Part shown: positions 20,087 through 49,784 of the stretch, in pieces
How positions within the stretch are numbered: the stretch's first letter is position 1
Layout: each line of letters opens with the position of its first letter
Assembly: GCA_003649205.1 (NCBI GenBank)
Contig: QMRC01000003.1
Location: forward strand, 96,001-160,000
Length of the DNA stretch: 64,000 bases
Source: Thermoprotei archaeon
Lineage (GTDB): Archaea > Thermoproteota > Thermoprotei > Thermoproteales > B15-G16
Direction: 5' to 3'
The notes under the pieces: generated by a model
Told to the model about the DNA's origin: nothing
Seen by the model: the letters and a program-made list of their open reading frames with translations, nothing else
The model's database searches: none
Made by a program: the position numbers and the translations under genes

Positions 20087-21589
20087 CTGAGTAAGCTACC
20101 TGAAGAAATTAGCAGAGAGAGTAGAGACACTAAAACAAAGAGATTCATAATCTATGGAATCGAAGAGAAACCACCACTCCTTACAGCACTGTTCCTAGGA
20201 TTCCAACACTACCTCACAATGTTTGGAGCTACAGTCGCAGTTCCGCTACTCCTAGCATCACTAATGGAGCTAACGCCAGAGGATACAGCAAAGCTAGTAT
20301 GTATTCAATTCTTCTGTGCAGGTATTACTACACTACTGCAAACGTGGAAAAAGGTAGGTAGTGGGTTACCTATCGTACAAGGATCCTCATTCTCCTTTCT
20401 AGGACCTCTAGTAGCTATCATAGCTACCTGTAAGAGCATGGGGATTAGAGGTAGCGAAATACTACTCTACACAACAGGAGCTATCATAGGTGCTTCATTC
20501 TTTGAGATCGTGATTGGGTACAGTGGATTAGCTGGTCTATTGAGAAGGTACATAACACCTGTATCTATCGGGCCAACGATAATAGTTATTGGGCTCTCAC
20601 TAGCTGATGTAGGAGCTTCACAGGCAAGTGGTAACTGGGGTCTTGCACTACTTACAGTGGTACTCATTGTGCTGTTTAGTCAAGTACTTGGCAGGAGGTA
20701 CAGGATATTCATGCTGTTCCCAGTAGTACTCGGTGTCATGATCAGCTACGTAGTTGCACTACTACTCTCGATAACTGGCTTCCTAAAACCTGGTGATCCA
20801 GGGTACGTGAATTTAAGGCCACTCATGGAATTACCTTGGTTAAACATACCGAAGCCATTTCCATGGGGTTTACCTAAGTTCGTACCAGCGTTCATCCTCG
20901 GTATGTTAGCTGCTTACGTAGCATCGATGGTTGAGTCTATAGGTGACTACCACACAGTATGTAGGGTGAGTGAGGCACCACCACCAGACGAAAAGACAAT
21001 ATCCAAGGGTCTCGGTGCTGAAGGCCTTGGCTGCCTAATTGGTGGTATCTTCGGTTGTGCTGGAGGGTACACGAGTTATTCAGAGAACATAGGTGTCATT
21101 GGGTTAGTTAGGGTAGCTAGTAGATACGTCATTCAGCTAGGTGCGGTATTCATGCTGCTAATGGGGTTCTTCGGTAAGTTCGGAGCACTCATGGCGACAA
21201 TTCCTAAGCCAATTATTGGAGGTCTATATCTCGTAGTATTCGGTATGATAGCTGCTGTAGGAGCTTCGCTGCTTACGCTAATAGACTTGAAATCACCTAG
21301 AAACCTACTGATCGTAGGCATGTCACTGTACCTCGGTCTAAGCGTACCTATGTGGATGAAAGGTTACAACCCATACGGTGTTAAAGGTAGAGGAGCAATC
21401 GTCGCACTGCTACCTCCACAACTAATGTGGTTAGGTGAAATAGTTGAGATTATACTCGAGACAGGTATGGCCGTTGCAGCTATAGTCGGCATCGTGCTAG
21501 ATAACCTGATACCAGGAACACCGGAAGAACGAGGATTGACACATCCTGAATGGTGTGGTAAGGTAATGAACAAGAGAGAGAACAAGTGA
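20087..21589 (+). CDS. NCS2/NAT nucleobase (uracil/xanthine) permease
   Basis: QGSSFSF, ESIGD, TSYSENIG; the TM1 motif (YGIEEKPP...FQHYLTM) lies upstream of the ORF-track ATG 20219, implying a CTG start at 20087. Confidence 0.9.
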   Translation: MSKLPEEISRESRDTKTKRFIIYGIEEKPPLLTALFLGFQHYLTMFGATVAVPLLLASLMELTPEDTAKLVCIQFFCAGITTLLQTWKKVGSGLPIVQGSSFSFLGPLVAIIATCKSMGIRGSEILLYTTGAIIGASFFEIVIGYSGLAGLLRRYITPVSIGPTIIVIGLSLADVGASQASGNWGLALLTVVLIVLFSQVLGRRYRIFMLFPVVLGVMISYVVALLLSITGFLKPGDPGYVNLRPLMELPWLNIPKPFPWGLPKFVPAFILGMLAAYVASMVESIGDYHTVCRVSEAPPPDEKTISKGLGAEGLGCLIGGIFGCAGGYTSYSENIGVIGLVRVASRYVIQLGAVFMLLMGFFGKFGALMATIPKPIIGGLYLVVFGMIAAVGASLLTLIDLKSPRNLLIVGMSLYLGLSVPMWMKGYNPYGVKGRGAIVALLPPQLMWLGEIVEIILETGMAVAAIVGIVLDNLIPGTPEERGLTHPEWCGKVMNKRENK

Positions 21590-21851: not shown

Positions 21852-23126
21852 ATGAGCTACAGTGTTATTCAGCATGTTAAGGTTTCGTGGAGAGGTAAGG
21901 AGTGTAGTAAGTGTAATGTTCCGGATAGGTGGACTGTTGAGGATGGGAATTACGTACTTGGTAATAAGTTCCATCCCGTTGCTGTAATGGTACCACTGGA
22001 TGATGAGGTAGGTAATGAATTGGTGAAGACAGCTATTGAGCTTGGTGTAGCAATAGCTGGTTTCTGTAAGACAGCTAACATAGGGATTGAGAAGGTAGTA
22101 TGTAATGTGCTAGCTAATCCAAACATTAGGTACCTAGTAGTTGTTGGTCACGATACAAGCGGTCATCGTAGTGGTGAAGCTATGATTAAGTTGTGGAGGT
22201 ATGGTGTGGATCCAGAGAGTAGGAGAGTGCTGAATTGCGATGCACCAACGGCCTACATACCAAATCTGCCGCTTGAAGCTATTGAGAGATTTCGTGATCA
22301 GGTAATTGTCATTGATATGCTAGGTGTGACGGATAGGGAGATGCTGAGAAAGGTGATTAGAGGCTGTATTCAGGAACCTTGGAATGCTGTTGAGATTGAG
22401 GTGAAGGGTATTAAGTATAGGTTATTCGATCCTGGTGCATATGACTTAGAGCCATATATAGTCAAGGTAACGAGTAAGGTGAGCGGGGGGTATGTGGAGA
22501 CTCTATCACAGAACCTTACAGTCGTTGTTGCGAGGTCAGTAGCTGATGCCTATAGGGAAGTGATTCGACTAATTGAGAGATTTGGTAGATGTGTTGAGTC
22601 TAGGTTTGGAATTACGAAGGAGTTAATGAATGTCGTGATACACGTACTTGATCCTCTCTGTGATGAAGTACCTAGAGAGTACCCACTTGGTGCTAAGAAG
22701 TATCTTGAGGAGTACTGTAGAGCTATTCTCGAGGGTAGGAGTATTGAGGGTTATGAGTATAGCTATGGTGAGAGGTTGAGGGTTAAGTTCGGTGATCAAT
22801 TGCGAGCTATCGTCGATAAGTTACGTAGTGAACCGAGTACTAGACAAGCTGTTGCTGTGTTCTGGAGTCCTTACGAGGACTTGGTCAAGACAGAGAACCC
22901 ACCTTGTTTCATACTGTGGCAATTCATGATTAGGGATGGTAAGCTACATGCTACGGTGTACATGAGGAGCCACGACTTTAGGAGTGCCTTCGTACACAAT
23001 GTATTTGCCGTTAGAGAGGTAATGAAGTACATTACGGAAGAACTTAAGAGAAGTGGTCTTGACGTTGATCTAGGTACGATAACATTCATTGCATGTAGTT
23101 GCCATGTCTATGAGAACTACAGGTAG
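21852..23126 (+). CDS. MtrA-like corrinoid-binding domain fused to archaeal ThyA-type thymidylate synthase
   Basis: N-half: GFCKTANIGIEKVVCNVLANPNIRYL..GHRSG and AYIPNL..EAIERFRDQV; C-half: YSYGERL, RQA, PPC, RSHD, HVY. Confidence 0.88.
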   Translation: MSYSVIQHVKVSWRGKECSKCNVPDRWTVEDGNYVLGNKFHPVAVMVPLDDEVGNELVKTAIELGVAIAGFCKTANIGIEKVVCNVLANPNIRYLVVVGHDTSGHRSGEAMIKLWRYGVDPESRRVLNCDAPTAYIPNLPLEAIERFRDQVIVIDMLGVTDREMLRKVIRGCIQEPWNAVEIEVKGIKYRLFDPGAYDLEPYIVKVTSKVSGGYVETLSQNLTVVVARSVADAYREVIRLIERFGRCVESRFGITKELMNVVIHVLDPLCDEVPREYPLGAKKYLEEYCRAILEGRSIEGYEYSYGERLRVKFGDQLRAIVDKLRSEPSTRQAVAVFWSPYEDLVKTENPPCFILWQFMIRDGKLHATVYMRSHDFRSAFVHNVFAVREVMKYITEELKRSGLDVDLGTITFIACSCHVYENYR

Positions 23127-25254
23127 TATTGCTGATGAGATTAAGCAATTCATCGACTATGTTAGGAGCTGTAATGCTAGAGGTCTGATAGTCCTCAGTG
23201 GTGATACAGAACAAGTAATACACGTATTAAGCACACTACTTGGGCACCTAGCTAGACCTATACTCGCATTTACTGATAGTAGGGACCTACGTAAGGTACT
23301 TGCTGTGCATGATATTGAGGTAGCTAGATTTCATGAGCTGACTAGTTACCTAGGTAGGGAGTATAGCTCTGTCATTATGGATTTTAGGTACTTCTTCAGA
23401 CCTAATGCTGTTTCTGCTGCATCAGAGATGATTAGGTGCGGTGGATTCAGTATCTGGTTAACTAAGTCACTTAGTTTGTGGAGTCCAGGTGTCGAGGGTG
23501 GTAGAGGTACCTTCCGTAGGTATTTACTTGAGTCGCTTAAGTTGTGTAGATCAATCCTTGTAGTTGATGTTGATAGCGGTGAGGTGGTATTGCGTAATCT
23601 ACCGAGTAAGTTATCTCGAAGACAGTTCACACCCGAGATCACGAATGTTGATGAGAGGTTGAGAAAGGTACTTTCGCTATGTGCTACTGAGGATCAGTAC
23701 GAGTTCGTTTTGCATAGCTTAAGACTGCTTAGTGACTTAACACTTAAGGTTTTAGTTGGTAAAGGTGATCGTGGTAGAGGGAAGAGCGCTGCTCTCGGTC
23801 TAGCAACTGCGCTGGCTATAGCACATAACTACACTGATGAGATTTTGGTAACAGCACCTTCACCACGCAGTATCACGACATTCATGAAGTTCCTCTGTCT
23901 AGGGCTAGAGAAGCTAGGTATTGATTATAAGACAATTACTGAGAAGGGAAGTGTAGTGGGTATTAGGGGTAGGGGTTTTGAAGTTAGGTATGTTGTCCCT
24001 TGGTTAGCTACTGGTGCTAGATTAACGGTGATTGATGAGGCTGCTGCTGTTGGTGCTGCTCGTGTTAGGAGGTTGTGTGCTAAGAGTAGGAAGGTCATGA
24101 TGGTGACTACAGTCCACGGTTACGAAGGTTCTGGAAGGGTAGCTTCTGAACTGCTAATTAAGCAGCTACCTAGTCCACTAGTCTACGAGTTCAAGGTACC
24201 TATTAGGTACCTATCAAATGATCCACTTGAAGAGTGGCTTTACCAAGTATTCTTTCTCCGAGTAGACCCAATAGAGATACCGAAACCAGAGAATGTGGAG
24301 TACTCTTCTGTAGATCAAGAACAGCTAGTTAAGGATAGGGATTTACTACGGAAAGTCTATGGCTTACTCGCTCTAGCGCACTACAGGAATGAACCTGATG
24401 ACTTAATGACCATGCTTGACGCCCCTCATCACCACATTCGTATACTCAACTCCGATAGAGGAGTTGTAGCTGTTGCGCAGATAGCTGAGGAAGGACCTAT
24501 TCGTGATGTTGAGAGAGCTATTACACGTGGTCTAAGAGGAGTACTGGTCTTAGATAAGTTACTGAGGTACGGTCCTAAGGAAGCTGCTAAGACAAGAGGC
24601 TGGAGAATTGTTAGGATTGCTGTAGTACCTAATCTACAGAGAAGAGGCTACGGTTCAAAACTACTAAACTTCCTCGAGGAGGAAGCACGTAGTATAAACC
24701 TTGACTGGATCGGTGCTATATTCTCTAGAAATGACATCATTGACTTTTGGTTAAAGAACGGGTACTTACCAATCTATGTATCTCCACGATTCAATAAGGT
24801 GACAGGTGAGAAGAACATAGCTGTGATAAAGCCACTGAGTACTAGGATGCGACATTACGTTGAAGAAGCATTGAGGGAATTTAAGGTTAGATTACTTACC
24901 TGCTTAATGAGTGTCTACAGGGATTTAAGTGCTGAGGTTGTTGCTAGTGTATTGAAGAGTATTAGGGTACCTGTGTCAGTGAGAATTGAGTTAACGAGAA
25001 ATCAAGAGAAGAGACTCGAGATGTACTTAAGTAGGAGGATTCTACTTGAATCAGCTATGGATGCTATTTACTTAGCAACATTGAGGAAGTTATGTGAATC
25101 CCCTTCAGTAGATCTAAGCTTCAGCGAATTAGTTGCGTTGATTGCTTATGTACTGCAGGGTAAACCTTTGGACGATGTGGCTGCTGCTCTCAGAACCGAT
25201 ATAGAGACCGCTAAAGCTACTGTAGATAAAGCTGTTAGGAAGCTACTTAGCTAG
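23110..25254 (+). CDS. tmcA: RNA cytidine acetyltransferase (TmcA/Nat10)
   Basis: GDRGRGKS, DEAA, TTVHGYEGSG, PIRY..DPLE, AHYRNEPDDL, RIVRIAV..QRRGYG. Confidence 0.93.
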   Translation: MRTTGSIADEIKQFIDYVRSCNARGLIVLSGDTEQVIHVLSTLLGHLARPILAFTDSRDLRKVLAVHDIEVARFHELTSYLGREYSSVIMDFRYFFRPNAVSAASEMIRCGGFSIWLTKSLSLWSPGVEGGRGTFRRYLLESLKLCRSILVVDVDSGEVVLRNLPSKLSRRQFTPEITNVDERLRKVLSLCATEDQYEFVLHSLRLLSDLTLKVLVGKGDRGRGKSAALGLATALAIAHNYTDEILVTAPSPRSITTFMKFLCLGLEKLGIDYKTITEKGSVVGIRGRGFEVRYVVPWLATGARLTVIDEAAAVGAARVRRLCAKSRKVMMVTTVHGYEGSGRVASELLIKQLPSPLVYEFKVPIRYLSNDPLEEWLYQVFFLRVDPIEIPKPENVEYSSVDQEQLVKDRDLLRKVYGLLALAHYRNEPDDLMTMLDAPHHHIRILNSDRGVVAVAQIAEEGPIRDVERAITRGLRGVLVLDKLLRYGPKEAAKTRGWRIVRIAVVPNLQRRGYGSKLLNFLEEEARSINLDWIGAIFSRNDIIDFWLKNGYLPIYVSPRFNKVTGEKNIAVIKPLSTRMRHYVEEALREFKVRLLTCLMSVYRDLSAEVVASVLKSIRVPVSVRIELTRNQEKRLEMYLSRRILLESAMDAIYLATLRKLCESPSVDLSFSELVALIAYVLQGKPLDDVAAALRTDIETAKATVDKAVRKLLS

Positions 25255-35328: not shown

Positions 35329-35442
35329 AACTCTAGTAACCTACATAGACATACAAAGGATATATGTTCATGAGTTAGCAAATTAATGTGAATATATAAG
35401 GTACTAAGCCTCTTATCTTCCCTATATCGTATATTCGGGATA

Positions 35443-35457
35443 GAAAAGTTTTAAATA
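35443..35457 (+). promoter_or_regulatory. BRE/TATA promoter of the sugar-binding protein gene
   Basis: GAAAAG-TTTTAAATA upstream of ATG 35493. Confidence 0.6.
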
Positions 35458-35492
35458 GGGCTATTGTGTCTTATAGCACGAGGGTCATTAAT

Positions 35493-37010
35493 ATGGCTGA
35501 GAAGAGAGCATTAACCTTAGCGATAGTACTTCTCATAGTTGGCTTAGTAATTGGTATAGCAATTGGCTACTACGCCATACCAAGACCAGCACCACCAGCT
35601 CCACCCACACCGCCACCTCCCACTGGTATTCCACCTGAAGAGTATGAGAAATTGAAGAAGGAGTACGAGAAACTGAAGAGTGAGCTAGAGGAACTGAAGA
35701 AAGGTGTCACCATTGAGTTAAGGGTTTGGGGTGCTGGTGACCCAGCATCAGTAACTAGAGTTAATAATCCAGAGGCTGCTGCAAAGCTACTGACAGAGTT
35801 ACTGAAGACACTCGGTATTACAGCTGAAGTTAAGGTTGTTGAGAAGTACTACCACAGAGGTCCATGGGCTGAGTACGAGAAGAAGATTTACTTAGCTTAT
35901 GAGGCGGGTAAGCTACCAGACATAATTGCTGTAGGTCACGAGTGGATACCAATGCTAGCGGAGAAGGGAATTATAATACCACTGGATGAGTATGTGGAGA
36001 AGTACTGGGACCTCGCATTCTACGACATACCAAAACCACTGTGGGAAGCTGTAACCTACAAGGGACACATATGGGCAATACCACAGGATACAGAAGCTAG
36101 ACCAGTCTACGTTTGGAAGCCAGCACTTAAAGCACTTGGGTGGACAGACGAGGAGATAGCTGCACTACCAGAGAAGGTGAAGAGCGGAGAATTCACACTA
36201 GACGACATGCTAGAGCTAGCTAAGAAAGCAGTTGAGAAGGGATTGGTTAAGTACGGTATACTACATAGACCAACACCTGGTGGAGAGCTGTGGCAGATCT
36301 ACCTAGCTTACGGTGGTAAGTTATGGGATCCAGCAACAGGTAAGATGGTGCTGAAGAAGGGCGCAATGCTGAAGGCCTTGGAGTGGTTCTATAAGGGTGC
36401 ACAGGTCTACAAGGTGATACCGTCAGACATGACAACGTGGTCCTGGAGATCCATACACACAGCAGTTGTCTCAGGACAGACATTATTCTGGTTCGGTGGT
36501 ACATGGCACTGGGCTGAGTGGCAAAAAGTACCATACCACCCCAAGCTAGGTAAGGTACCTGAGTCATACCTGTGGGAGAACTTCATATTCATGCTAGTAC
36601 CAAGTGGATACAAGGGTGGAAAACCAGTAACACTATCACACCCATTCGTCTACGTCATAACTAGCCAGAGCAAGCACCCAGAAGTAGCTGCACTAATACT
36701 AGCACTAGTAACGCAACCAGAATTCGATGTAAAGCACGCTGTTGGCAGTGCACACATACCCGTTAGAAAGGCAAGCCTAGAGCACCCAGAGATGAAGAAA
36801 GCTAAGTTCCTAAGCGATGTAGCATACATGCTAGACTACACGACATTCGAGCCAATGCACCCACTATGGAGCAAGTACAAGAAGATAATCTTTGACGCTA
36901 TTGCAGCTGTTGAGATGGGTAAGATGAAGCCAGATGAGGCACTAAAGTTCATGATAGACTCAATAAAGGCAGATCCAGAGCTAGCTAAAGAAGTCGTGAT
37001 CACGGAGTAA
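35493..37010 (+). CDS. Sugar/polyol-phosphate ABC substrate-binding protein
   Basis: TM anchor, Pro-rich linker, coiled coil, PDII, WAIPQDTEAR. Confidence 0.9.
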   Translation: MAEKRALTLAIVLLIVGLVIGIAIGYYAIPRPAPPAPPTPPPPTGIPPEEYEKLKKEYEKLKSELEELKKGVTIELRVWGAGDPASVTRVNNPEAAAKLLTELLKTLGITAEVKVVEKYYHRGPWAEYEKKIYLAYEAGKLPDIIAVGHEWIPMLAEKGIIIPLDEYVEKYWDLAFYDIPKPLWEAVTYKGHIWAIPQDTEARPVYVWKPALKALGWTDEEIAALPEKVKSGEFTLDDMLELAKKAVEKGLVKYGILHRPTPGGELWQIYLAYGGKLWDPATGKMVLKKGAMLKALEWFYKGAQVYKVIPSDMTTWSWRSIHTAVVSGQTLFWFGGTWHWAEWQKVPYHPKLGKVPESYLWENFIFMLVPSGYKGGKPVTLSHPFVYVITSQSKHPEVAALILALVTQPEFDVKHAVGSAHIPVRKASLEHPEMKKAKFLSDVAYMLDYTTFEPMHPLWSKYKKIIFDAIAAVEMGKMKPDEALKFMIDSIKADPELAKEVVITE

Positions 37011-37329
37011 ACTCCCTATTTTCTCCCCCTCTACCTCCCTTAGCATCTAAATCTCTAAGTTCCTCAAGCTTTCTTTTCAGAAGAACAAAATCCTCTATAA
37101 TACTCTCAACAATACCTACAACGTAGTCGTACACGTGAACACGTACAGTACCTAGGTCTACACCCGTTCTTGTGGAAACTATTTGAGCTACCTTCTCCAC
37201 TACCGTCTTAACACCATCTATGTCCCTATTCAGGATTGCAGTGAGTAAGTAGTCGTAGGTATCGCCATTAAATACCTCGTCGATTACCTCGATTATATTG
37301 CTTAGCCTAGCTACTCGTACTTCTGTCAT
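37000..37329 (-). CDS. Hypothetical protein
   Basis: 109 aa with GGGTGA RBS; antisense within the ABC cluster. Confidence 0.6.
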   Translation of the reverse strand: MTEVRVARLSNIIEVIDEVFNGDTYDYLLTAILNRDIDGVKTVVEKVAQIVSTRTGVDLGTVRVHVYDYVVGIVESIIEDFVLLKRKLEELRDLDAKGGRGGENREFTP

Positions 37330-37487
37330 GAGAGAATCACCCGTAGTACTTAGGAGAGAAAAGTAATTTTAGGAGATCAATACTGAGACCAGATCATTCA
37401 CTGATCGTACACTTTCACCAGTTTCTTAACTAGCTAAAGTAGTAGGGATTAATGAATAGGTATAAGTAACTCGCTTTATACATCAAT

Positions 37488-38477
37488 ATGTCTAAAAGGA
37501 AATTCTTTTTTACCCTACCTGCACAATTACCCCTGATGTCCTCTAGAAGGCTACATCGTTCAAGGAGTAAACTGAGCCCTAGAGCTAGGAAGTTCCTACT
37601 ACTTACCATCTTCCTAGGCCCATGTATTGTCATGATTGCTCTCTTTTGGTTTGGTCCTGTATTCCTAACTGTCTTTCTCTCGTTTACGGACATGAGTATT
37701 AGGAGAGCTGAGTGGCATTGGGTTGGTCTTGAGAATTACTTCAACATAGGTAAGCATCCATTTACGATGAAGGTTGTTGTGAATACTGCAATCTACGTTT
37801 CCTGTACGTTGCTGTGGAATGTCTTCGTTGGTCTTCTCCTTGCTCTACTCACTTACTACATGGATGAGAGGAGTGCTCTCTTCTATAGGGCTCTCTGGCT
37901 ACTACCGCGATCCTCACCACCAGTTGTCTATGGTCTACTGTGGTTATGGGTACTTGACCCAACTGAGTATGGTTTACTCAATCAATTTGTTCTCGCTCTT
38001 GGTCTCAGCGATAAGCCAATTAACTGGTTGATGGAGTACCCCATGCTCTTCATAATACTCATCAACGGCTTCGTTGGTTGTTCATTCGGTATGATTGTGT
38101 TCTCATCAGCTCTCAAGTCAATACCTAGAGACTACATAATCGCTGCTCGTGTTGATGGTGCTTCTGAGTGGAGAATAATTAAGGACATAATCCTACCACT
38201 GCTGAAGTGGCCACTCATGTTTGTTACAGCGTGGCAGACGCTAAGTCTCCTAGCATCTTACGAGTACATCCTGATAGTGACCAATGGTGGCCCATTCTAT
38301 GCTACAGAGGTTTGGTCGCTATTTGCATACCACCAAGCATTTGAACATCTTGAGCTAGGTTTTGGCGCTGCACTAGCTATGGTGCTGGTCATTGTTTCGA
38401 TTATATGTGTTGTCGCTTACATGAAGGTGTTCAAGTTCAGGAGGATGATATCGCCTGCAAAGATTGAGATTGCTTAG
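37488..38477 (+). CDS. Carbohydrate ABC permease
   Basis: AARVDGAS, TNGGP; start may be ATG 37536. Confidence 0.9.
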   Translation: MSKRKFFFTLPAQLPLMSSRRLHRSRSKLSPRARKFLLLTIFLGPCIVMIALFWFGPVFLTVFLSFTDMSIRRAEWHWVGLENYFNIGKHPFTMKVVVNTAIYVSCTLLWNVFVGLLLALLTYYMDERSALFYRALWLLPRSSPPVVYGLLWLWVLDPTEYGLLNQFVLALGLSDKPINWLMEYPMLFIILINGFVGCSFGMIVFSSALKSIPRDYIIAARVDGASEWRIIKDIILPLLKWPLMFVTAWQTLSLLASYEYILIVTNGGPFYATEVWSLFAYHQAFEHLELGFGAALAMVLVIVSIICVVAYMKVFKFRRMISPAKIEIA

Positions 38478-38488
38478 GGGGTGATGCC

Positions 38489-39373
38489 ATGTATAGGGGT
38501 AGGAGATCGGTAGTGAATCCGTACTCGTATAGAATTAAGAGAGCATTGATGAAGGCTGTGATATATGGTGTTATGACTGCTGCTACGATACCACTCATAA
38601 TGATGTACCTATGGCTCTTCATGCAGTCAATCAGTGATAGGGTACTAGTTGGTTTCATACCGACAAACTTCTCGATCAGGGGCTGGAGATTCTTATGGCA
38701 GGAGATCAAGTTTGGTGAAGTCACTATACCGATGATATGGCCTATAGCACTGAACTCACTAATCATAGCAGGTGGTGTTACGGTCTTTGAGGTATCGATT
38801 GCTCTACTAGCTGGTTATGCTCTCTCAAGAATAGAGTTCCCACTTAGAGACAAGATGCTACTCCTCATAATAGCACTACACGCCTTCCCTGGTATCACAC
38901 TTCTCATAGCTACATTCTACCTACTCCACCTAATGGGTCTGATCAATACGCTATTTGGCGTCATAATTGCTAAGGCAGCATTCGAAATACCTATGGCGGC
39001 TTGGTTGATTAAGGGATTCTTTGACGCAATACCATGGGATGTCGAGGCATCAGCTCTCGTAGATGGATGTAGTAGGTTACAGGCCTGGAGGAAGGTAATT
39101 CTACCTCTGGTCAAGCCAGGTATAGCTGCTGTATCGATCTTTGCATTTCTAGCAGGCTGGAATGAGTTCATATTCGCATACACATTCCTCTTCGATCCCA
39201 ACCTCTTCCCACTATCAGTTCACGTACTCAACCTAATTGGTGAGTTTAGGTACGTAGACTACTCACTACTAGCAGCAACAGCACTATTCTACTGTATACC
39301 ACCCTTAGTCTTCTTCGTCTTAACTCAGAAGTATCTCATGCAGGTTCAGGTTGGTGGTGTTAAGGGTGCTTAA
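38489..39373 (+). CDS. Carbohydrate ABC permease
   Basis: EASALVDGCS, WNEF; GGGGGTGA RBS. Confidence 0.92.
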   Translation: MYRGRRSVVNPYSYRIKRALMKAVIYGVMTAATIPLIMMYLWLFMQSISDRVLVGFIPTNFSIRGWRFLWQEIKFGEVTIPMIWPIALNSLIIAGGVTVFEVSIALLAGYALSRIEFPLRDKMLLLIIALHAFPGITLLIATFYLLHLMGLINTLFGVIIAKAAFEIPMAAWLIKGFFDAIPWDVEASALVDGCSRLQAWRKVILPLVKPGIAAVSIFAFLAGWNEFIFAYTFLFDPNLFPLSVHVLNLIGEFRYVDYSLLAATALFYCIPPLVFFVLTQKYLMQVQVGGVKGA

Positions 39374-39381
39374 TCTAGGAG

Positions 39382-40488
39382 GTGAGGTATGTGGTTAGTG
39401 TGAGGTTAGTTGATCTCTGTAAGTACTTCGGTAGTGTTAAGGCTGTAGATGGTTTAAACCTAGAGATTAAGGATGGTGAATTCGTTGTATTGCTAGGTCC
39501 CTCTGGTTGTGGTAAGACAACAACTCTCTTCTGTATAGCTGGCATCTACAAACCGACTAAGGGTAGGATATACTTCGATGAGATTGATGTAACAGACTGG
39601 CCTCCTAAGGACCGGAACATAGGTATGGTCTTTCAGAGCTATGCACTGTACCCACACATGACCGTGTTTGACAACATAGCGTTTCCACTGAAGTTAAAGA
39701 AGTTACCTAAGCAGGAGATCGCTAGGAGGGTTAGGGAAGTTGCTAAGATGCTTCAGATAGATCACCTACTGGATAGGTACCCAGCACAGCTCTCTGGTGG
39801 TCAGCAGCAGAGAGTAGCACTAGCAAGAGCACTTGTGAAGCAACCTGATGTCTTCCTCCTAGACGAGCCACTTAGCAACCTAGATGCTAAGTTGAGGATA
39901 CTTATGAGAGCTGAGTTGAAGAGACTTCAGAAGGAGCTCAAGATAACTACTGTCTACGTAACGCACGACCAAGCAGAAGCTATGACCTTAGCTGACAGGA
40001 TTGCAGTCATGAATGAGGGTAAGCTACAGCAGTATGGCCCACCTGATGAGATCTACAATAGACCAGCGAATGTGTTCGTTGCTGGATTCATAGGTGCACC
40101 ACCAATGAACTTACTCGATTGCTCACTGGTGGAGAGAGATGGTAGGTATGTACTTGACTTCACGTCATTTGAGATAGAGCTACCTAGAGAGCTAGGTGAA
40201 GTCGTTAGGTCTAGAGCTAGTAGTAGCGAGGTAGTGTTCGGTGTTAGACCAGAAGACCTCAAGATAAGTAAGGGACCAGCTACATCAGCTATCAAGGGTG
40301 TAGTGTACGTTACAGAACCACTTGGTAGGGAGGTCATAGTCAACGTCAGGATTGGTGATCACATAATTAAGGTCATTGAATCCGCATCAACAGCCTCAGA
40401 AATTGCAGCAGGTCAAGAAGTATGGGTCGTACTTGACTTCAACAGGGTACACATATTCGATAGGAAAACAGGCAAACTAGTTGTATAA
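39382..40488 (+). CDS. MalK/UgpC-type ABC ATPase
   Basis: GPSGCGKTT, VFQSYALYPHM, LSGGQQQR, DEPLSNLD, TOBE tail; start probably GTG 39391. Confidence 0.95.
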   Translation: MRYVVSVRLVDLCKYFGSVKAVDGLNLEIKDGEFVVLLGPSGCGKTTTLFCIAGIYKPTKGRIYFDEIDVTDWPPKDRNIGMVFQSYALYPHMTVFDNIAFPLKLKKLPKQEIARRVREVAKMLQIDHLLDRYPAQLSGGQQQRVALARALVKQPDVFLLDEPLSNLDAKLRILMRAELKRLQKELKITTVYVTHDQAEAMTLADRIAVMNEGKLQQYGPPDEIYNRPANVFVAGFIGAPPMNLLDCSLVERDGRYVLDFTSFEIELPRELGEVVRSRASSSEVVFGVRPEDLKISKGPATSAIKGVVYVTEPLGREVIVNVRIGDHIIKVIESASTASEIAAGQEVWVVLDFNRVHIFDRKTGKLVV

Positions 40489-40490
40489 GT

Positions 40491-41147
40491 ATGTTGAAAC
40501 CACTAGTGATAGCTCATGCGTGTAACTCACTCGGTAGGGTAGCAAAGTGTATCTCACAGGGTGCTAATGTCATTGAGATTGATGTATATTCGTACGGTGG
40601 AGAGTTAATTGCGTACCACCCACCAGATCCAGTAGTTCCAGTATCTAGAGTTAAGAGGTTCATAGAGTCAATTAGGTACAGCGTAAAGCGATCTAGAGCA
40701 CCTAAGCTGAGGGACTTACTAAGTGAAGTGTTGAAGTACCCTATCGGTATCTGGCTAGACCTCAAGGTACCAAGGATAGAGGATTCAGTGTGTAAGTTAG
40801 TTATGGAGTTGGGTATCTCAGATGAGAGACTCTACTTCTCATCAGCTTACCACTACTCGCTAAGAGTAATCAAGGAGCTACTACCTAAGTCACGGACATT
40901 TATTAGTCTCAGTGAGAGACCTGTCGACCCATACTACGTAGCTAAGTGTGCTCAGGCGGATGGTGTATCTATAAGGATTGACTTTCTAGATCGAGAACTA
41001 GTTGAGCAACTACATACACACGGTATAAAGGTCGTTGTGTGGACTCTAAATGATGAGGGTCAGATCATCAATGCGGTGAAGCTAGGTGTTGACGGTATCG
41101 TTACCGACATTCCAGAGCTGGTGAAAAGGCTCTTAAGTGGGTACTGA
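40491..41147 (+). CDS. Glycerophosphodiester phosphodiesterase family protein
   Basis: VIAH, EIDV, LDLK, VVWTLND, GVDGIVTD.P. Confidence 0.85.
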   Translation: MLKPLVIAHACNSLGRVAKCISQGANVIEIDVYSYGGELIAYHPPDPVVPVSRVKRFIESIRYSVKRSRAPKLRDLLSEVLKYPIGIWLDLKVPRIEDSVCKLVMELGISDERLYFSSAYHYSLRVIKELLPKSRTFISLSERPVDPYYVAKCAQADGVSIRIDFLDRELVEQLHTHGIKVVVWTLNDEGQIINAVKLGVDGIVTDIPELVKRLLSGY

Positions 41148-41187
41148 TTTATCTTCATCAAGTACGTACTCTACTCGAGGTGGGTAC

Positions 41188-42342
41188 ATGTACTTCAGGT
41201 ACTACTGTCCAACTGAGGTAATATTCGGTAGAGGATCTATCAAGGAGGTAGGTCAAGTAGTTAGGAACTTCGGTTCAAGAGCACTCTTAGTAGTTGGTAG
41301 GAGATTCGCTAAGGAATCAGGTTACCTCGATAAGATAACCAAGCTACTTCAAGAAGCTGGAGTAGAGGTCCATGTATTCAGCGGCGTTGAACCCAATCCA
41401 TCAACTGAAACAGCACAGAGATGTAGTGAATTCGCTAGGGAGAGAGGTAGTGAGGTCATAGTTGCCTTTGGTGGTGGTAGTGTAATTGATGTGGGTAAGG
41501 CAGCTGCTGTAGTAGCTGTTCAAGGTGGTAGAGTCGAGGAGTACCTCTACCCTAAGGTAGTTACAGGTAACGCACTACCAATCGTAGCAATACCAACGAC
41601 CTGTGGTACAGGCAGTGAGGTAACGAAGAACTCAGTACTGACCATAGTTAAGGAGAAGAGGAAGGTAGTAGTTGTCGGTCCAGCGATAATACCTAAGGTA
41701 GCTATAGTGGATCCCGACGTCATTAGGTACCTACCACCTAAGCTAATTACGTGGACAGCAATGGACGCACTCTCACATGCACTAGAAGCATACGTATCCA
41801 AGAGATCAACACCAATATCCGATGTGCTAGCACTCGAAGCCATTAAACTCATCATAGAGAATGTGGAGAGAGCAGCAAAGGGTGATGAAACCGCACAAGA
41901 GAAGCTACACCTAGCAGCAACACTAGCTGGAATGGCAATAAACGTAGCAGGGACAGTACTCGTACACGCAATGGGGTACTACCTCACAACACACCACGAC
42001 GTACATCATGGACTAGCAAACGCATTAACACTACCGTACGTACTTGAGCTAGATCTACAGCACATACCCAGAGACAAAGTAGAGAAACTACTACACCTAC
42101 TAAACGTAGAAACAGTACAAGACCTCATAATCAAGCTCTGTAAACTTCTCGATAGAGTAGAGATACCAAATAGCGTAAAAGATGTAGGAGTTCAAGAAGA
42201 AGAGCTAGAAACCTACGTAAAGCACACACTAGGGTACCGAAGAAATCTAGAAAACAACCCAATAGAAGTAACCGAGGACATAGTACGAAATCTCATAAGT
42301 AAGGCACTGAGTGGTAGAAAAGGAACATATAGGTATCACTAG
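41188..42342 (+). CDS. Iron-containing alcohol dehydrogenase
   Basis: PNP, GGGSVID, IPTTCGTGSE, DALSHALE, HAMG, HGLAN; GAGGTG RBS. Confidence 0.92.
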   Translation: MYFRYYCPTEVIFGRGSIKEVGQVVRNFGSRALLVVGRRFAKESGYLDKITKLLQEAGVEVHVFSGVEPNPSTETAQRCSEFARERGSEVIVAFGGGSVIDVGKAAAVVAVQGGRVEEYLYPKVVTGNALPIVAIPTTCGTGSEVTKNSVLTIVKEKRKVVVVGPAIIPKVAIVDPDVIRYLPPKLITWTAMDALSHALEAYVSKRSTPISDVLALEAIKLIIENVERAAKGDETAQEKLHLAATLAGMAINVAGTVLVHAMGYYLTTHHDVHHGLANALTLPYVLELDLQHIPRDKVEKLLHLLNVETVQDLIIKLCKLLDRVEIPNSVKDVGVQEEELETYVKHTLGYRRNLENNPIEVTEDIVRNLISKALSGRKGTYRYH

Positions 42343-42471
42343 CGTTATACCTAGCTTCAGAAGCAATACAATTCCCACAATATATCATGAAATTAACAAA
42401 CTAGGAATATAGCTTGAGTAGTATTGCATAGCGGTGTTATACATAGAATTGTGTAAGTCAAGAGATAACGA

Positions 42472-43116
42472 ATGTATCCGGATAGGAAAACCATGAAACC
42501 TTTATATACGTTGATAATAGCTGGATGTACGTCAATAATCTCTGCATTCCTAGGATTCTTCTCAGGATACGGATTTGCTAGGTACAGAGTTGATGGTCCA
42601 CACCTACTATTCTGGATACTATCGATTAGGTTCCTACCACCGGTAGTAGCTGTCATACCTTACTACCTACTCTTCAGAGCACTAGGAATTCTCGACACGT
42701 ACCCAGCGGTCATAATACCACATCTATGTATCGGAATTCCGTTTGCTGTGTGGTTGATGAGGAGCTTCATCATGAGCATACCTGTAGAACTTGAGGAGGC
42801 AGCGTTAGTCGACGGTTGTAGTAGGTTTACCGTGCTCTTCAAGATAGTGTTTCCACTAGCTCTACCAGGGTTCCTCATTACGGTACTATTCACCTTCATC
42901 TGGTCGTGGAACGAGTTCATGTATGCACTAATACTGACAGACGTCAATGTCAGGGTAATGACTGTAACCATCGCTGGTATGAGGGAAGCTCATGGACTTA
43001 TGTGGGGTGCTGTGTCCGCAGCAGCTACGATAGCTACGTTACCGACAATAGCTCTTGCCATACTCCTTCAGAAGTACTTGGTTAGTGGTCTAGCATTCTT
43101 CACACCTAGAAGGTAG
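42472..43116 (+). pseudogene. N-terminally truncated MalG-type permease
   Basis: EEAALVDGCS and WNEF present, but it begins at the second TM and lacks about 70 aa compared with 30722..31585. Confidence 0.6.
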
Positions 43117-44073
43117 ATCCTTCTGCTTTTTCTCTACCTCCTCTATCAGCTTCCTCAAGTACTGTACTGAGACTCTATACCCTTCCTCACCGTACTTATC
43201 CGAAAGCTCGATGATTAATGCTCCGCGGTATCTCTGGAATACTCTGTTCACTACCTGTACCCACGGTATATCTCCCCACCCTAGTGGTAGGTGTAGGTCG
43301 CCAAATCCATAGGCTACATTGTGTTCTGGGAAGTATGGGTGGTAGAGTCCGTAGTTATCGCTTAGGTGCATGTGTATGGTATGTGGTAATGCTTCTTCCA
43401 TTGCTTTGAGGAAGTTGAAGTTGAGTGCTTTTGAGCATATGTAGAGGTGTCCTATGTCGAGTGTGATACCGAGGTTATCTCTCTTGGCTTTCACTACTAC
43501 GTAAAGTAGTTCACTTACTCTTCGACAGAGATGTGTTAGTCCTAGATCACCGTTCTCTAGACCTATGGTAATTCCGTAGTCTCTAGCTAGGTCACAGCAC
43601 TTAGTTAGGTTCTGTGCTAGTTGATTTAGTGCTCTGTACTTTTCCTCCTCACTTAGCTCTACGTAAGTTATGTTTCTAGGTCCTGCCCACATTACTCTCT
43701 GTAGTTCTTGCTCTGGTGGTATGATGTAGCCACTGTGAAGTACCATGATTTTAGCATCTAGTTCTTGACCTAGTTCCATACATGACTTGATTACTTCTAG
43801 TGAGTACTTTAGTAGATGTGTGTCAAGTATATTCACTTCGTCAGGTATGTGTATGGTGTACTTGAATCTGTATGGAGAGAGAAGGTCGAGTAGTTTCTGT
43901 ACGTTTTCTCTAGCTAGTTTCCTACCTATGATTAGGTTGAACTTATGTGGAGATATCTCCAGCACCTCGATATTGAGTTCGCTGAAGAAGTTAAGCCACT
44001 TAGCAATCTTCTTCATTCCTTCGGTGGTTAACCAAATTGACATTGGTAGGAAGTTCACACCTATTGGGTTCAC
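43090..44073 (-). CDS. Sugar phosphate isomerase/epimerase (xylose-isomerase-like TIM barrel)
   Basis: VLHSG, GLEN, LDIGH, HMHLSDN, DLHLPLGWG, IIE. Confidence 0.85.
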   Translation of the reverse strand: MNPIGVNFLPMSIWLTTEGMKKIAKWLNFFSELNIEVLEISPHKFNLIIGRKLARENVQKLLDLLSPYRFKYTIHIPDEVNILDTHLLKYSLEVIKSCMELGQELDAKIMVLHSGYIIPPEQELQRVMWAGPRNITYVELSEEEKYRALNQLAQNLTKCCDLARDYGITIGLENGDLGLTHLCRRVSELLYVVVKAKRDNLGITLDIGHLYICSKALNFNFLKAMEEALPHTIHMHLSDNYGLYHPYFPEHNVAYGFGDLHLPLGWGDIPWVQVVNRVFQRYRGALIIELSDKYGEEGYRVSVQYLRKLIEEVEKKQKDLPSRCEEC

Positions 44074-44125
44074 GTTTACACCTGAGTTGGTTAACGTTAA
44101 TAAGTGAATTCTCCTTGTTGTCGAT

Positions 44126-44527
44126 GTGGTGAGATATGTGAAGATTAAGGTGAGAATAACTTCTGAATCTACTGGTGTTGTTGAGGCTGAGCTATTCGAT
44201 GATCTTAGTCCAAATACCTTCAGGAAGATCGTTGAAGCTCTACCATTTGAAGGTGTAGCACGTAGGTGGGGTGATGAAGTTTACTTTGAGATCCCCGTCC
44301 ATGTTCCTGAGGAAAATGCTGTTGAAATAGTTGAGAAAGGTACAGTTGCTTACTGGCCACCAGGGCACTCGCTATGCATCTTCTGGGGACCTACACCAGC
44401 TAGTAGACACCCCGATGAGATTAGACCTGCTAGTCCTGTGAACGTGGTTGGTAGAGTCTTAGGTGATCCGACAGTGTTCTCTAGGGTTAAGTATGGTGAG
44501 AGGATTAGAGTTGAGAGAGCTGAGTAA
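44126..44527 (+). CDS. Cyclophilin-like fold protein (DUF369)
   Basis: WGDEVYF, AYWPPG..LCIFWGPTP, PASPVNVVG. Confidence 0.85.
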   Translation: MVRYVKIKVRITSESTGVVEAELFDDLSPNTFRKIVEALPFEGVARRWGDEVYFEIPVHVPEENAVEIVEKGTVAYWPPGHSLCIFWGPTPASRHPDEIRPASPVNVVGRVLGDPTVFSRVKYGERIRVERAE

Positions 44528-45682
44528 TTACTCGACCACGGCACCTGGTTCAAGTACTTTACCTGCAGGTACTCTAGCTCCTTTACCTATGTAGGAACCA
44601 AGCTTCATGATCTTTCTACCTCTTCTCACTACCTCGATTGGTCTCTCTTTCCAAATTCTTTCTTTCATGATAACCTTAGTCACTACATTTGGTTCAATAA
44701 CTGCTTCACTACCAACGACACTAAAGCCTAAGTACGTAGCTCTTCCGATAGTTGCTCTAGGTTGAATTGAAGACCACGTTACCTCAGTGAATGAGAATAT
44801 TGTTGACTCCTCTTCAACTGTTGTGTAATCTCTCACAAGTGTATGAGTAGCTACGTAGCTATTCCTACCGATGTACACCGGTCCCTTAATAACTGCATGG
44901 TGCTCTATCTCTGCTCCATCCTCAATAACTACAGGACCCTCAATAACAGCTGTCGAAGCTATCCTCGCTCTACTCGATATGAAGCTCCTCTCTAGAGAAC
45001 TCAATACGAAGTAGTTTGCTCTCAAGAGATCCCAGGGAAAACCAATATCAACCCACCAACCACTCCAAATAGATGACCTAACTCTCCTCAACTTAATTAA
45101 CTTCGACATAGCTACCTCAAAGTTCTCATACTGCTCGAGAAGTTTGAAGAACTCGGTATTGACTATCATCAAGCCACCAAATGCGTAGTAACCCTCAAGC
45201 TCTCGACTAGGTTTCTCAATGAATTCCGTAACAAAGCCTTCAGCATCTACTCTAACAGCTCCATAGAGTCTAACATCCTCTTCAGGGACCAGCATCAGGG
45301 TACTGGTGCTGTAGGCTAGGAAGGAACTGAGTATTGTCTCAACACCTTCTTTCGGTAGCAATGTATCTCCGTAGTAGATGAGTACATAACCTCTAACATA
45401 GTCCTTAACCGATAGGAGCGCAGCTTCAACACCTACACCACACTGCTCAATAACCTCAAGCTCTAGACCTAATCTCCTATACCTCTCAAGAACTGGCTCA
45501 AGGGCACCAGGTCTATCTGTAACGACAAGAACTCTCCTCATATTTAGCTCAAGCAAGTTACCCAGTACATACTCAATAACTGCTCTACCAGCTATCCTCA
45601 GCAGTACCTTAGGCTCTCCCCTAGTCAATAGCTGGAGACCAGTACCAGGACCACCCGCCAGCACGATGACAGGTAGCGACAT
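44528..45682 (-). CDS. Sugar-phosphate nucleotidyltransferase with hexapeptide repeats (GlmU-like)
   Basis: LAGGPGTGL...PK, YGD, FIEKP, WVDIG.PWD, left-handed beta-helix. Confidence 0.85.
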   Translation of the reverse strand: MSLPVIVLAGGPGTGLQLLTRGEPKVLLRIAGRAVIEYVLGNLLELNMRRVLVVTDRPGALEPVLERYRRLGLELEVIEQCGVGVEAALLSVKDYVRGYVLIYYGDTLLPKEGVETILSSFLAYSTSTLMLVPEEDVRLYGAVRVDAEGFVTEFIEKPSRELEGYYAFGGLMIVNTEFFKLLEQYENFEVAMSKLIKLRRVRSSIWSGWWVDIGFPWDLLRANYFVLSSLERSFISSRARIASTAVIEGPVVIEDGAEIEHHAVIKGPVYIGRNSYVATHTLVRDYTTVEEESTIFSFTEVTWSSIQPRATIGRATYLGFSVVGSEAVIEPNVVTKVIMKERIWKERPIEVVRRGRKIMKLGSYIGKGARVPAGKVLEPGAVVE

Positions 45683-45685
45683 TAA

Positions 45686-47551: not shown

Positions 47552-47651
47552 CGTGAAACCATAGATAAACAACAGTAAATAGTAAATTATCAGTATCTCA
47601 ATCTCACTAAGCAACACAAGAGCAAGTAAGAGAGAACGCGGTGATTGATGT

Positions 47652-48950: not shown

Positions 48951-48974
48951 GGGTACAGGACCAAGGAACAGTAC

Positions 48975-49331
48975 CTACGAGAACCACCACCTCCTATGCT
49001 TAAGATCAATGACGATACCTAACAACTCAATACACTTAGCGGATAAAATAACCTCATCCTCACCAGGAGCAATAGCGACATAAGCTTCAACACACCTACA
49101 CTCATTATTCATCGAAACCACAACCTCTACCCTCTCACCGAGGTACACGATACCGTACGTAAGAGTAGGACCTCTAAACATCACTTCCCTACCATATCTC
49201 AAGCCCAATTCCGAAGCAACCTCCGGAGGAACAGCAACAACAGGTTCATCACTTTCGAAACCAGTATTCAAAAGAGCATAAGCCTCAACCTCCTTACCAC
49301 ACCTCCTCAACCTAACAGGAATCCTCAACAA
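48975..49331 (-). CDS. Retropepsin-like (clan AA) protein with NTG in place of DTG
   Basis: ALLNTGF...ILS pattern. Confidence 0.7.
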   Translation of the reverse strand: MLRIPVRLRRCGKEVEAYALLNTGFESDEPVVAVPPEVASELGLRYGREVMFRGPTLTYGIVYLGERVEVVVSMNNECRCVEAYVAIAPGEDEVILSAKCIELLGIVIDLKHRRWWFS

Positions 49332-49719: not shown

Positions 49720-49784
49720 GGGATTTGAACCCGGGCTCACGGGATCCACAGTCCCGCATGTTACCAGGCTACACCACCGCGGCC
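49710..49784 (-). tRNA. tRNA-His(GTG), mirror copy sharing 10 bp
   Basis: Reverse complement of 49645-49719. Confidence 0.9.

Follow-up and report, generated by a model that had tools for sequence, protein, structure and literature searches.

A Single Gene Joins an MtrA-Type Domain to a Short Thymidylate Synthase

A window of 64,000 nucleotides from the genome of an uncultured, heat-loving Thermoprotei archaeon of the order Thermoproteales (assembly GCA_003649205.1, contig QMRC01000003.1, positions 96,001 to 160,000) was analyzed with a focus on a single gene in which a domain of the MtrA type, related to the cobalamin-binding subunit of the Mtr complex, is fused to a thymidylate synthase (ThyA) domain of the methanogen type. 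The open reading frame (ORF) occupies positions 21852..23126 of the forward strand, begins with an ATG and encodes 424 amino acids followed by a stop codon. The N-terminal half matches the Pfam family PF04208 (MtrA) over residues 22-183 (E = 3.6e-40, 137.9 bits against a cut-off of 25) and the C-terminal half matches PF00303 (Thymidylat_synt) over residues 312-422 (E = 5.7e-14, 52.3 bits against a cut-off of 24.3). Among the NCBIfam models for MtrA, the subfamily model NF002126 scores just below its cut-off on the N-terminal half (159.3 bits, cut-off 161) and the equivalog model TIGR01111 far below (132.2 bits, cut-off 249.15). Based on PF04208, phmmer, and Foldseek, the MtrA-type Rossmann domain together with a conserved C-terminal extension (CIQEP...Y.LFDPGA) was delimited to residues 20-212 (21909..22487, forward strand). 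The ThyA domain, of the short archaeal (methanogen) type, follows directly and extends over residues 213-424 (22488..23123, forward strand) according to TIGR03283, PF00303, Foldseek, and phmmer.

The two assignments are supported by comparison with solved structures. In phmmer searches the N-terminal half matched the cytoplasmic MtrA homologue of Methanothermus fervidus (PDB 5LAA, E = 1.4e-33) and MtrA of the Mtr complex (PDB 8Q3V, E = 9.6e-33), and the C-terminal half aligned with many solved ThyA chains. An AlphaFold2 model built on 25 fusion homologues reached a mean predicted local distance difference test (pLDDT) of 91.1 and a predicted template modeling score (pTM) of 0.72. Foldseek comparison of the model with the MtrA structures 5L8X and 5LAA gave template modeling (TM) scores of 0.92-0.94 (normalized to the target), and solved ThyA enzymes, the CMP hydroxymethylase MilA, AfhB, and a phage dCMP hydroxylase were matched with E values of 1e-13 to 1e-15 and a probability of 1.00. 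The MtrA fold continues into the ThyA domain with neither a membrane anchor nor a transmembrane helix, and the C-terminus lies four residues past Tyr420. A first-pass annotation, made from the DNA sequence alone, had described the protein as a one-gene fusion with no membrane anchor, a description that holds for this 424-amino-acid ORF with both Pfam domains and for its counterparts in other genomes. The motifs that it quoted were all found where it had placed them: TANIGIEKVVCNVLANPNIRYL, GHRSG with His105, PPC with Cys352, RSHD (residues 372-375), HN with Asn383, and HVY (residues 418-420).

The neighboring genes were likewise as annotated. A xanthine/uracil permease gene (20219..21589, forward strand; PF00860, E = 3.9e-85) lies upstream of the fusion, separated from it by 262 nucleotides, and tmcA, encoding tRNA(Met) cytidine acetyltransferase (23089..25254, forward strand; PF05127, PF13718, and PF08351), lies downstream and overlaps or abuts the fusion stop; a contig of run X2 bridges window positions 22731-23423. 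Read from its first TTG codon (23089), tmcA overlaps the end of the fusion by 38 nucleotides; methionines occur at codons 6 and 8, and the true overlap may be shorter. The three genes share one strand and may be co-transcribed, and the adjacency of the permease is not kept in a related genome of another genus (G020). No further mtr genes were found within the window, in agreement with the first-pass annotation. Across the whole host genome, PF04208 matched only the fusion gene, an artefactual mirror copy of it, and a paralogue on contig C8; no mtrB-G genes were found, and the only match to PF02007 (MtrH) lies on contig C1 in another operon.

The Fusion Recurs in Independent Genomes

The host genome (G000) comprises 2.07 Mb in 31 contigs and is 93.8% complete with 4.2% contamination. 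The contig that carries the window (C3) is a perfect palindrome: it is identical to its own reverse complement across all 291,428 bases and is therefore an assembly foldback. The hinge was located at window position 49714/49715, within the 3' end of a tRNA-like sequence, and positions 49715-64000 mirror positions 35429-49714. The apparent second copy of the fusion on this contig is thus a mirror image and not a duplication, and anything found in 49715-64000 repeats what is found in 35429-49714.

A foldback contig lends some substance to the possibility that the fused frame is itself an artefact, that is, two neighboring genes joined by an error of sequencing or assembly, as does the lack of a single contig spanning the gene in any run but the probable source, the other runs contributing short pieces of related strains. 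However, the contigs of four public sequencing runs that cover the gene show no indels. The full fused frame is also present in a second genome of the same genus (G001, 93% identity) and in a Thermoproteales metagenome-assembled genome, orthologues were identified in two other genera (57% identity in G020 and 54% in G034), and a genome from another family of the phylum (G294) carries a fusion of the same type (46% identity, incomplete because the contig ends within it). The frame is also common to numerous proteins from metagenomes of several sources. In a database search, 26 out of 120 of the matches listed carried both PF04208 and PF00303. Furthermore, the linker is conserved (41.3% mean identity) and was modeled by AlphaFold2 as ordered strands. 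Its recurrence across independent genomes and metagenomes shows that the fusion did not arise in assembly, and the chance that two separate genes were joined in error is considered negligible; the concern that the reads might resolve into two genes is answered by the same fused frame in several genomes and by the absence of indels from the run contigs.

The ThyA Half and the Synthesis of dTMP

A total of 25 fusion proteins that are 34-58% identical to the query were aligned (alignment A1) to assess the conservation of functional residues. Cys352, Arg372, Ser373, Asp375, Asn383, His418, Tyr420, Arg331, and the motif Tyr303-x-Tyr305-Gly306 are invariant in all 25 proteins, which extends to the whole alignment the earlier claim that the specificity Asn and the catalytic ThyA residues are present in the window protein, and phmmer alignments place these residues opposite their counterparts in solved ThyA enzymes. 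Cys352 (22905..22907, forward strand), the predicted catalytic nucleophile within the P-C motif, aligns with the PPC of solved thymidylate synthases; the segment with Arg372-Ser373-His-Asp375 and Asn383 (22965..23000, forward strand), predicted to recognize the phosphate and the base of deoxyuridine monophosphate (dUMP), aligns with the R-S-x-D motif and the Asn of solved ThyA. The positions presumably correspond to Cys146, Arg166, Asp169, Asn177, His207, Tyr209, Arg126, and Tyr94 of Escherichia coli ThyA. Asp375 we take to be the equivalent of the pterin-contacting Asp of classical ThyA, and Asn383 the specificity residue that selects dUMP over dCMP.

The gene content of the genomes that carry the fusion points in the same direction. 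ThyX is present in 35 out of 41 genomes of the order, and the six genomes without it are the four carriers of the full-length fusion (G000, G001, G020, and G034) and two genomes that are 87-89% complete. ThyX was also not found in G294, the fifth carrier of a window-type fusion, and co-occurrence with thyX, which the first-pass annotation had suggested for study, thus came out as five carriers out of five that lack it. A stand-alone PF00303 match was found in none of the 41 genomes of the order, and besides the fusion the host genome has one other ThyA-family match, the contig C8 paralogue, which shares the architecture. Searches for thymidine kinase in G000, G020, G034, and G294 came up empty, as did those for dihydrofolate reductase (DHFR, PF00186) in all five genomes tested, the host genome among them; in a control panel PF00186 likewise had no match in Methanocaldococcus jannaschii or Methanosarcina acetivorans, two methanogens with a stand-alone ThyA. 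Nucleotide metabolism is represented among the neighbors of the fusions by the uracil/xanthine permease in the host genome and by the anaerobic ribonucleotide reductase NrdD in G294, and two PurP genes lie beside divergent fusions in G326 and G303. With no ThyX, thymidine kinase, or DHFR found, the fusion is the sole recognizable route to deoxythymidine monophosphate (dTMP) in the host genome. In all likelihood it acts as the cell's thymidylate synthase and, judging from the conserved residues, its C-terminal half most likely follows ThyA chemistry.

The ThyA-like half might instead catalyze another Cys-dependent reaction at C5 of a pyrimidine, such as a hydroxymethylation, or act on another substrate, with dTMP being supplied by salvage or by a route that has escaped recognition. 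The best structural matches do include the phage dCMP hydroxylase and the CMP hydroxymethylase MilA, and the score of the protein with the methanogen-type model TIGR03283 is below the cut-off. Three genomes with divergent fusions (G303, G326, and G350) possess a stand-alone ThyA as well, the second paralogue of the host genome lies within a probable mobile element, and a related three-domain family is mostly bacterial and its hosts may have an ordinary ThyA or ThyX. Nevertheless, this explanation is regarded as very unlikely for the window protein: ThyX is missing from each of the five genomes with a window-type fusion, no thymidine kinase was found, Asn383 and the remaining dUMP-binding residues are invariant, and the neighboring genes belong to nucleotide metabolism.

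The Cobamide Pocket of the MtrA-Type Domain

The residues of MtrA that bind cobalamin are described by Wagner et al. (PMC4915002). There, His84 is the lower axial ligand of the cobalt and is hydrogen-bonded to Glu54 and Ile111; further contacts are made by Asn55, Asn82-NH, Asp17-N, Lys52-N, Thr53, Gly57-O, Asn64, Tyr18, and Val61, of which the side chains of Tyr18, Thr53, Asn55, and Asn64 hold the nucleotide tail and a propionamide of the cobalamin. The same source gives a conserved "meander" motif, GAIPF(Y/F)xEN, and its section 6 identifies Glu54 as the E of TEN.

Mapping by alignment shows that most of these contacts have a counterpart in the fusion protein, where Tyr34, Thr74, Asn76, Gly78, Val82, Asn85, and His105 occupy the corresponding positions. 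The codon of His105 (22164..22166, forward strand) aligns with the His of QGH in 5LAA and 8Q3V, making His105 the equivalent of the cobalt ligand His84, and the motif predicted to form the pocket for the cobalamin tail, T74-A75-N76-I-G78-I-E-K-V82-V-C-N85, is encoded at 22071..22106 of the forward strand (contacts from PMC4915002). Among the fusion proteins, the equivalents of Thr53, Gly57, and Asn64 are kept in 25 out of 25, that of Asn55 in 24 out of 25, and that of Tyr18 in 22 out of 23. The Val61 equivalent is Val in 15 out of 25 and otherwise Ile, Leu, or Ala, and the His84 equivalent is His in 23 proteins and Tyr in two.

Two features of MtrA are altered. The position of Glu54 is Ala75 in the window protein and is Glu in none of the 25 fusion proteins, and the meander reads APTAYIPN as opposed to GAIPF(Y/F)xEN in MtrA. 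A census of 165 sequences that carry the motif T-x-N-x-G-x-E-[KR] extends the first of these observations: Glu is found at the x that corresponds to Glu54 in 100 sequences, all of them lacking a ThyA domain, and in 0 out of 36 ThyA-fused MtrA domains, which carry Ala (31), Ser (2), Cys (1), or Pro (2) at this position. The first-pass annotation's claim of MtrA signatures thus stands for the His and the cobalamin contacts; it does not extend to a fully canonical MtrA. The side chains of the pocket and the His are kept and Glu54 and the meander are altered, and by these residues the fused domain forms an MtrA subfamily of its own. The His-Glu relay is lost, but the pocket for the cobamide seems to be intact, and binding of a cobamide is plausible. 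The mean pairwise identity among the 25 fusions is 49.7% for the MtrA core (residues 26-170), 41.3% for residues 171-212, and 34.5% for the ThyA half, and by this measure no part of the protein is better conserved than the MtrA core.

Relatives within and beyond the Phylum

Relatives of the fusion protein were sought among 1.84 billion representative sequences, which yielded 5,451 matches at E ≤ 1e-3, of which 64 reached E ≤ 1e-30. Among the best 150, many are 460-500 amino acids long and align to the query nearly end to end, with single phmmer stretches that span residues 26-421. A domain scan of 25 representatives identified 13 proteins with an MtrA-like domain, a ThyA domain, and PF14251 (PterinBD-DUF4346), and three with ThyA and PF14251 in which MtrA was not detected. 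The three-domain proteins have lost the MtrA motif residues and the His (SGNNNP...GSG--SG) and have kept the catalytic residues of ThyA. They are automatically named "thymidylate synthase family protein". Clusters in the ESM Atlas tentatively place them mostly in the Cyanobacteriota, Thermodesulfobacteriota, Pseudomonadota, and Chloroflexota, which suggests that the family is mostly bacterial, and place a two-domain cluster of 447 amino acids mostly in the Nanobdellota.

The presence of the His was compared with that of a C-terminal extension (counted when at least 60 amino acids long, and DUF4346 in the sampled members) in 119 fused representatives. Overall, 42 have the His and no extension, one has both, 69 have the extension and no His, four have neither, and three lack the extension and carry Tyr at the position of the His. 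An extension is thus present in 1 out of 43 His-bearing and 69 out of 76 His-less fusions, the three with Tyr included among the latter. In a FastTree phylogeny of 126 ThyA domains, the extension-less forms fall into one set of 44 rows that includes one extended row (98% local support). The mutual exclusivity of His and extension is therefore essentially one split on the ThyA tree and does not amount to independent statistical evidence.

Within the phylum, 181 out of 401 genomes match some part of the fusion profile. Stand-alone ThyA of the methanogen type, in frames of 225-290 amino acids, is common across many lineages, and in this set the window-type fusion was seen only in G000, G020, and G294. 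All 12 genomes of one family of the same class (f4) match the profile; among the matches listed, 11 members carry the ThyA domain in frames of 462-536 amino acids, and one of the family's genomes (G122) was confirmed to encode the three-domain form. The divergent fusions of G303, G326, and G350 keep the His, which is followed by a deletion, have an altered GIEK motif, and occur in genomes that also have a stand-alone ThyA. Adjacency of separate MtrA and stand-alone ThyA genes in other lineages was ruled out in G182, G213, G207, and G175, where the two genes are far apart or on separate contigs.

Two groups carry an MtrA-type domain without a catalytic ThyA half. In the genus g8 (G022, G028, G030, and G038), truncated forms of approximately 320-350 amino acids consist of a His-bearing MtrA domain at 48-61% identity, the first strand-helix-strand of ThyA, and an unrelated short tail, and all four genomes have ThyX. 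In the family f13, 49 out of 56 sampled genomes, many of them closed and 1.4-2.2 Mb in size, match the fusion profile; among the matches listed these are small MtrA-like proteins with the MtrA part only, in frames of 155-160 amino acids (one of 278). MtrH was found in 0 out of 56 genomes of this family.

The second MtrA-ThyA paralogue of the host genome (contig C8:66583-68166) encodes 527 amino acids; its identity to the window fusion is 37% across the protein and 68% within the MtrA part, and both its linker and its ThyA domain contain large inserts. It lies in a same-strand block of ORFans alongside genes for a serine resolvase, a PIN protein, and a Cas4-like PD-(D/E)xK nuclease, probably a mobile element or provirus that has integrated into the genome. 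A scan of IMG/VR for relatives of the fusion found none; a viral origin of the paralogue is therefore unsupported.

The Role of the MtrA-Type Domain

The supply of cobamide in the genomes that carry the fusion is permissive. CobS was identified in G000, G001, G020, and G022 and CbiB in G020, G034, and G022, and the host genome also encodes a classical B12-binding protein and a RACo-type activase. A homologue of the methyltransferase MtrH is present in the host genome (E = 1.4e-73) and in G020, as well as in G350, G326, and G303; it was not found in G294 (98% complete), G034 (87%), or G001 (71%). In the host genome the gene lies in an operon (contig C1:284299-293555) that encodes MtrH, a B12-binding corrinoid protein, three URO-D-type methyltransferases, a major facilitator superfamily (MFS) transporter, and RACo, and a comparable operon is present in G350. 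The genes of the host operon appear to make up an entire corrinoid-dependent system for (O-)demethylation or methyl transfer, which may resemble the Mto systems of methoxydotrophy. Just upstream of it (contig C1:274310-280358) lies a type I-A-like CRISPR-Cas set with a Cas3 helicase, DevR/Csa2, Csa5, and a Csa3 regulator.

MtrH was considered as a dedicated partner of the fusion and rejected. It was not found in three of the carriers (G294, G034, and G001), it occurs in 149 out of 401 genomes of the phylum and is hence not specific to the fusion, the copies in G000 and G350 lie in self-contained operons that have a classical B12-binding protein of their own, and the fusions of G350, G326, and G303 are of the divergent type.

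These data bear on the possibility that the thymidylate synthase depends on a cobamide. C5 of dUMP, activated by Cys352, would attack methyl-cob(III)amide on the MtrA domain in a bimolecular nucleophilic substitution (SN2) to give dTMP and cob(I)amide with no oxidation of a pterin, and a separate methyltransferase such as an MtrH homologue would re-methylate the cobamide. The architecture fits this proposal in that a methyl-carrying corrinoid domain is joined to an enzyme that methylates C5, and the His and the side chains that contact cobalamin are conserved, the MtrA half more strongly than the ThyA half. TsrM is said to provide a precedent for a carbon nucleophile that takes a methyl group from methylcobalamin. 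No DHFR was found, DUF4346 (PF14251) was found in none of the four genomes with a window-type fusion that were tested, and serine hydroxymethyltransferase (SHMT) was not found in G000 and G294. CobS, the MtrH homologue, and the RACo-type activase are available in the host genome, and among the 119 fused representatives the His and the DUF4346-type extension are nearly mutually exclusive. On the other hand, Glu54 is retained in 0 out of 36 fused domains and the meander motif is altered, seven out of 50 extension-less representatives have Tyr, Phe, or Trp in place of the His and keep the ThyA residues, and stand-alone relatives do without a corrinoid domain altogether. The equivalent of the pterin-contacting Asp is invariant, and the distribution and operon context of MtrH given above offer no consistent means of loading the domain. 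A cobamide-dependent synthase is considered unlikely, although it is the strongest competitor of the favored reading.

A second way in which a corrinoid might take part is as the reductant: the one-carbon (C1) unit would come from a methylene-pterin, and the exocyclic methylene would be reduced via cob(I)/cob(II)amide, sparing the pterin as the flavin does in ThyX. The failure to find DHFR would fit, as would the ferredoxin genes: on the opposite strand after both the truncated gene of G022 and the full-length fusion of G034 there is a conserved pair of genes for an unknown protein of 280-333 amino acids and a 2x[4Fe-4S] ferredoxin. MtrA-ferredoxin fusions occur among the homologues found by database search, and the RACo activase of the host genome might be counted in favor as well. 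However, the protein has no Fe-S or other module for electron input, no conserved Cys cluster was found in the 25-sequence alignment, and no ferredoxin gene neighbors the fusion in the window. FolA is likewise missing from methanogens with a stand-alone ThyA (M. jannaschii and M. acetivorans), and stoichiometric use of cob(I)amide would be costly and, as far as can be judged, without precedent in this fold. A role as reductant is most improbable.

The reading that we favor, and to which we would give somewhat better than even chances, combines conventional Cys-dependent ThyA chemistry, using a methylene-pterin, with an MtrA domain that serves as an accessory module, probably loaded with a cobamide. 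Cys352 would add to C6 of dUMP, the activated C5 would take the C1 unit from a methylene-tetrahydropterin (the archaeon's own carrier, similar to tetrahydromethanopterin (H4MPT) or to folate), and the intermediate would be reduced to dTMP. In the window-type clade the MtrA-type domain would hold the cobamide with His105 as ligand, having lost two features that serve MtrA in the sodium pump, the hydrogen-bond relay between His and Glu and the meander. As an accessory it would be no obligatory donor of carbon or electrons; its function may be structural, it may sense or handle the cofactor, or it may possibly have a job of its own. The domain would derive from an old fusion, which other lineages let decay or to which they added the pterin-binding DUF4346.

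This accessory role is preferred because of the corrinoid-free relatives, the invariant Asp (equivalent to a residue that contacts the pterin in classical ThyA), the truncated forms, and the lack of a consistent loader. The stand-alone and His-less relatives suggest that the chemistry needs no corrinoid, and the truncated forms, which lack the catalytic half, suggest that the MtrA module has a role apart from ThyA catalysis. The first-pass annotation had gone further and proposed that the tethered corrinoid supplies the C1 unit, supplies electrons, or recycles the pterin. This proposal is so far unsupported: the loss of Glu54, the stand-alone ThyA enzymes, the His-less sister family with DUF4346, and the separate operon of the MtrH homologue argue that the corrinoid need do none of these.

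Several observations weigh against the favored reading. The His and the cobalamin contacts are conserved above the level of the catalytic half, which a purely structural function would hardly explain. Methylene-pterin is usually supplied by SHMT, and searches for this enzyme gave no match in G000 (93.8% complete), G294 (98%), or G122 and found it in G020 and G034; the host genome thus leaves a conventional C1 supply unaccounted for. The distribution of the extension (1 out of 43 His-bearing and 69 out of 76 His-less fusions) would fit two alternative modules for the donation of the C1 unit. Three further points concern the ThyA half. In the Arg-Arg pair that binds the phosphate of dUMP across the dimer, Arg331 is invariant and the second residue, Gln332 in the window protein, varies among relatives, where it can be Arg. 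The protein also lacks the C-terminal segment with which classical ThyA closes over its folate, with alignments ending at approximately position 213 of the 264-residue enzymes; the segment is likewise missing from ThyA of the TIGR03283 type. Finally, TIGR03283 (thy_syn_methano) matches residues 224-422 over model positions 2-196 out of 201 with 171.8 bits, below its cut-off of 174.55 (NCBIfam), a near miss that is expected for a divergent fused member.

Novelty and Significance

Thymidylate synthesis is essential, and to our knowledge only two classes of thymidylate synthase, ThyA and ThyX, have been recognized. The existence of the MtrA-ThyA fusion is not new, as it is visible in domain databases and in automatic protein names; its function is unexamined. 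Full-text literature searches for an MtrA-ThyA fusion, for DUF4346, and for a corrinoid-linked thymidylate synthase brought up no paper on any of them, in line with the first-pass annotation's suggestion that the route had not been described, although the supplements of PMC4915002 and PMC9931769 might list such fusions.

A third mechanistic class, in which methyl-cob(III)amide ligated by His105 is the direct donor of a C1 unit at the methyl level with neither oxidation of a pterin nor a flavin, is doubtful on the present evidence. If it were real, the His-less relatives with DUF4346 would represent a later switch back to a pterin donor. The participation of B12 in making a DNA precursor would be new chemistry. 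Otherwise, the MtrA fold would have a role other than methyl transfer, with consequences for the many MtrA homologues of non-methanogens that lack an explanation (PMC9635834). How the short archaeal ThyA enzymes gain and reduce the C1 unit is presented as hardly studied in PMC9931769 and PMC9012536, and the sole candidate thymidylate synthase of the host genome, joined to a well-conserved domain of the corrinoid-binding type, offers a testable handle on this reaction. Furthermore, the analysis brings to light a large, unstudied, and mostly bacterial family of MtrA-like-ThyA-DUF4346 proteins.

Comparison with Known Systems

The closest known enzymes for the catalytic half are the methanogen-type ThyA proteins (TIGR03283; PF00303; EC 2.1.1.45). 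The fusion shares their fold and covers nearly the whole 201-position model, and it has in common with them the Cys of the P-C motif, the R-S-x-D motif, the Asn, H-x-Y, and Y-x-Y-G-x-R. Both are short, lack a segment that closes over the folate, and serve as an alternative to ThyX in the genome. In contrast to these enzymes, the fusion carries an N-terminal MtrA-type domain of 212 amino acids, scores 2.8 bits below the equivalog cut-off, and is found in a host that is a non-methanogenic member of the Thermoproteales. The biochemistry of the stand-alone archaeal ThyA is itself characterized as scarce or little known in PMC9931769 and PMC9012536.

The N-terminal half shares with MtrA and its cytoplasmic homologues (PF04208; 5LAA, 5L8X, and 8Q3V) the Rossmann-type fold, the cobalt-ligand His, and the side chains that contact cobalamin. 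It is soluble, as are the MtrA homologues of 170-180 amino acids described in PMC4915002, a paper that also reports homologues from bacteria and from archaea that are not methanogens, most of which keep His84. What MtrAH does outside methane metabolism is called unclear in PMC9635834. Unlike MtrA, the fused domain has Ala in place of Glu54, an altered meander, and no transmembrane helix, and it occurs in a genome with no mtrB-G genes and with mtrH elsewhere; it is, moreover, covalently tied to an enzyme with no known use of B12.

In overall design the protein resembles the bifunctional DHFR-thymidylate synthases (DHFR-TS) of protozoa and plants, which also place an accessory domain that handles a cofactor N-terminal to ThyA and which were matched by Foldseek via the TS half. 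The N-terminal domain of the fusion differs in that it is not a DHFR, the partner having been drawn from corrinoid and not from pterin chemistry, and PF00186 was not found in the genome.

The MtrA-like-ThyA-DUF4346 proteins of approximately 460-500 amino acids resemble the fusion as a whole, being homologous over the entire common length and having the same catalytic residues in ThyA. Unlike the fusion, they have lost the His and most MtrA motifs of the N-terminal domain and have gained a C-terminal domain of the pterin-binding type. The two forms lie on opposite sides of the main split in the ThyA tree, with the three-domain proteins found mostly in bacteria.

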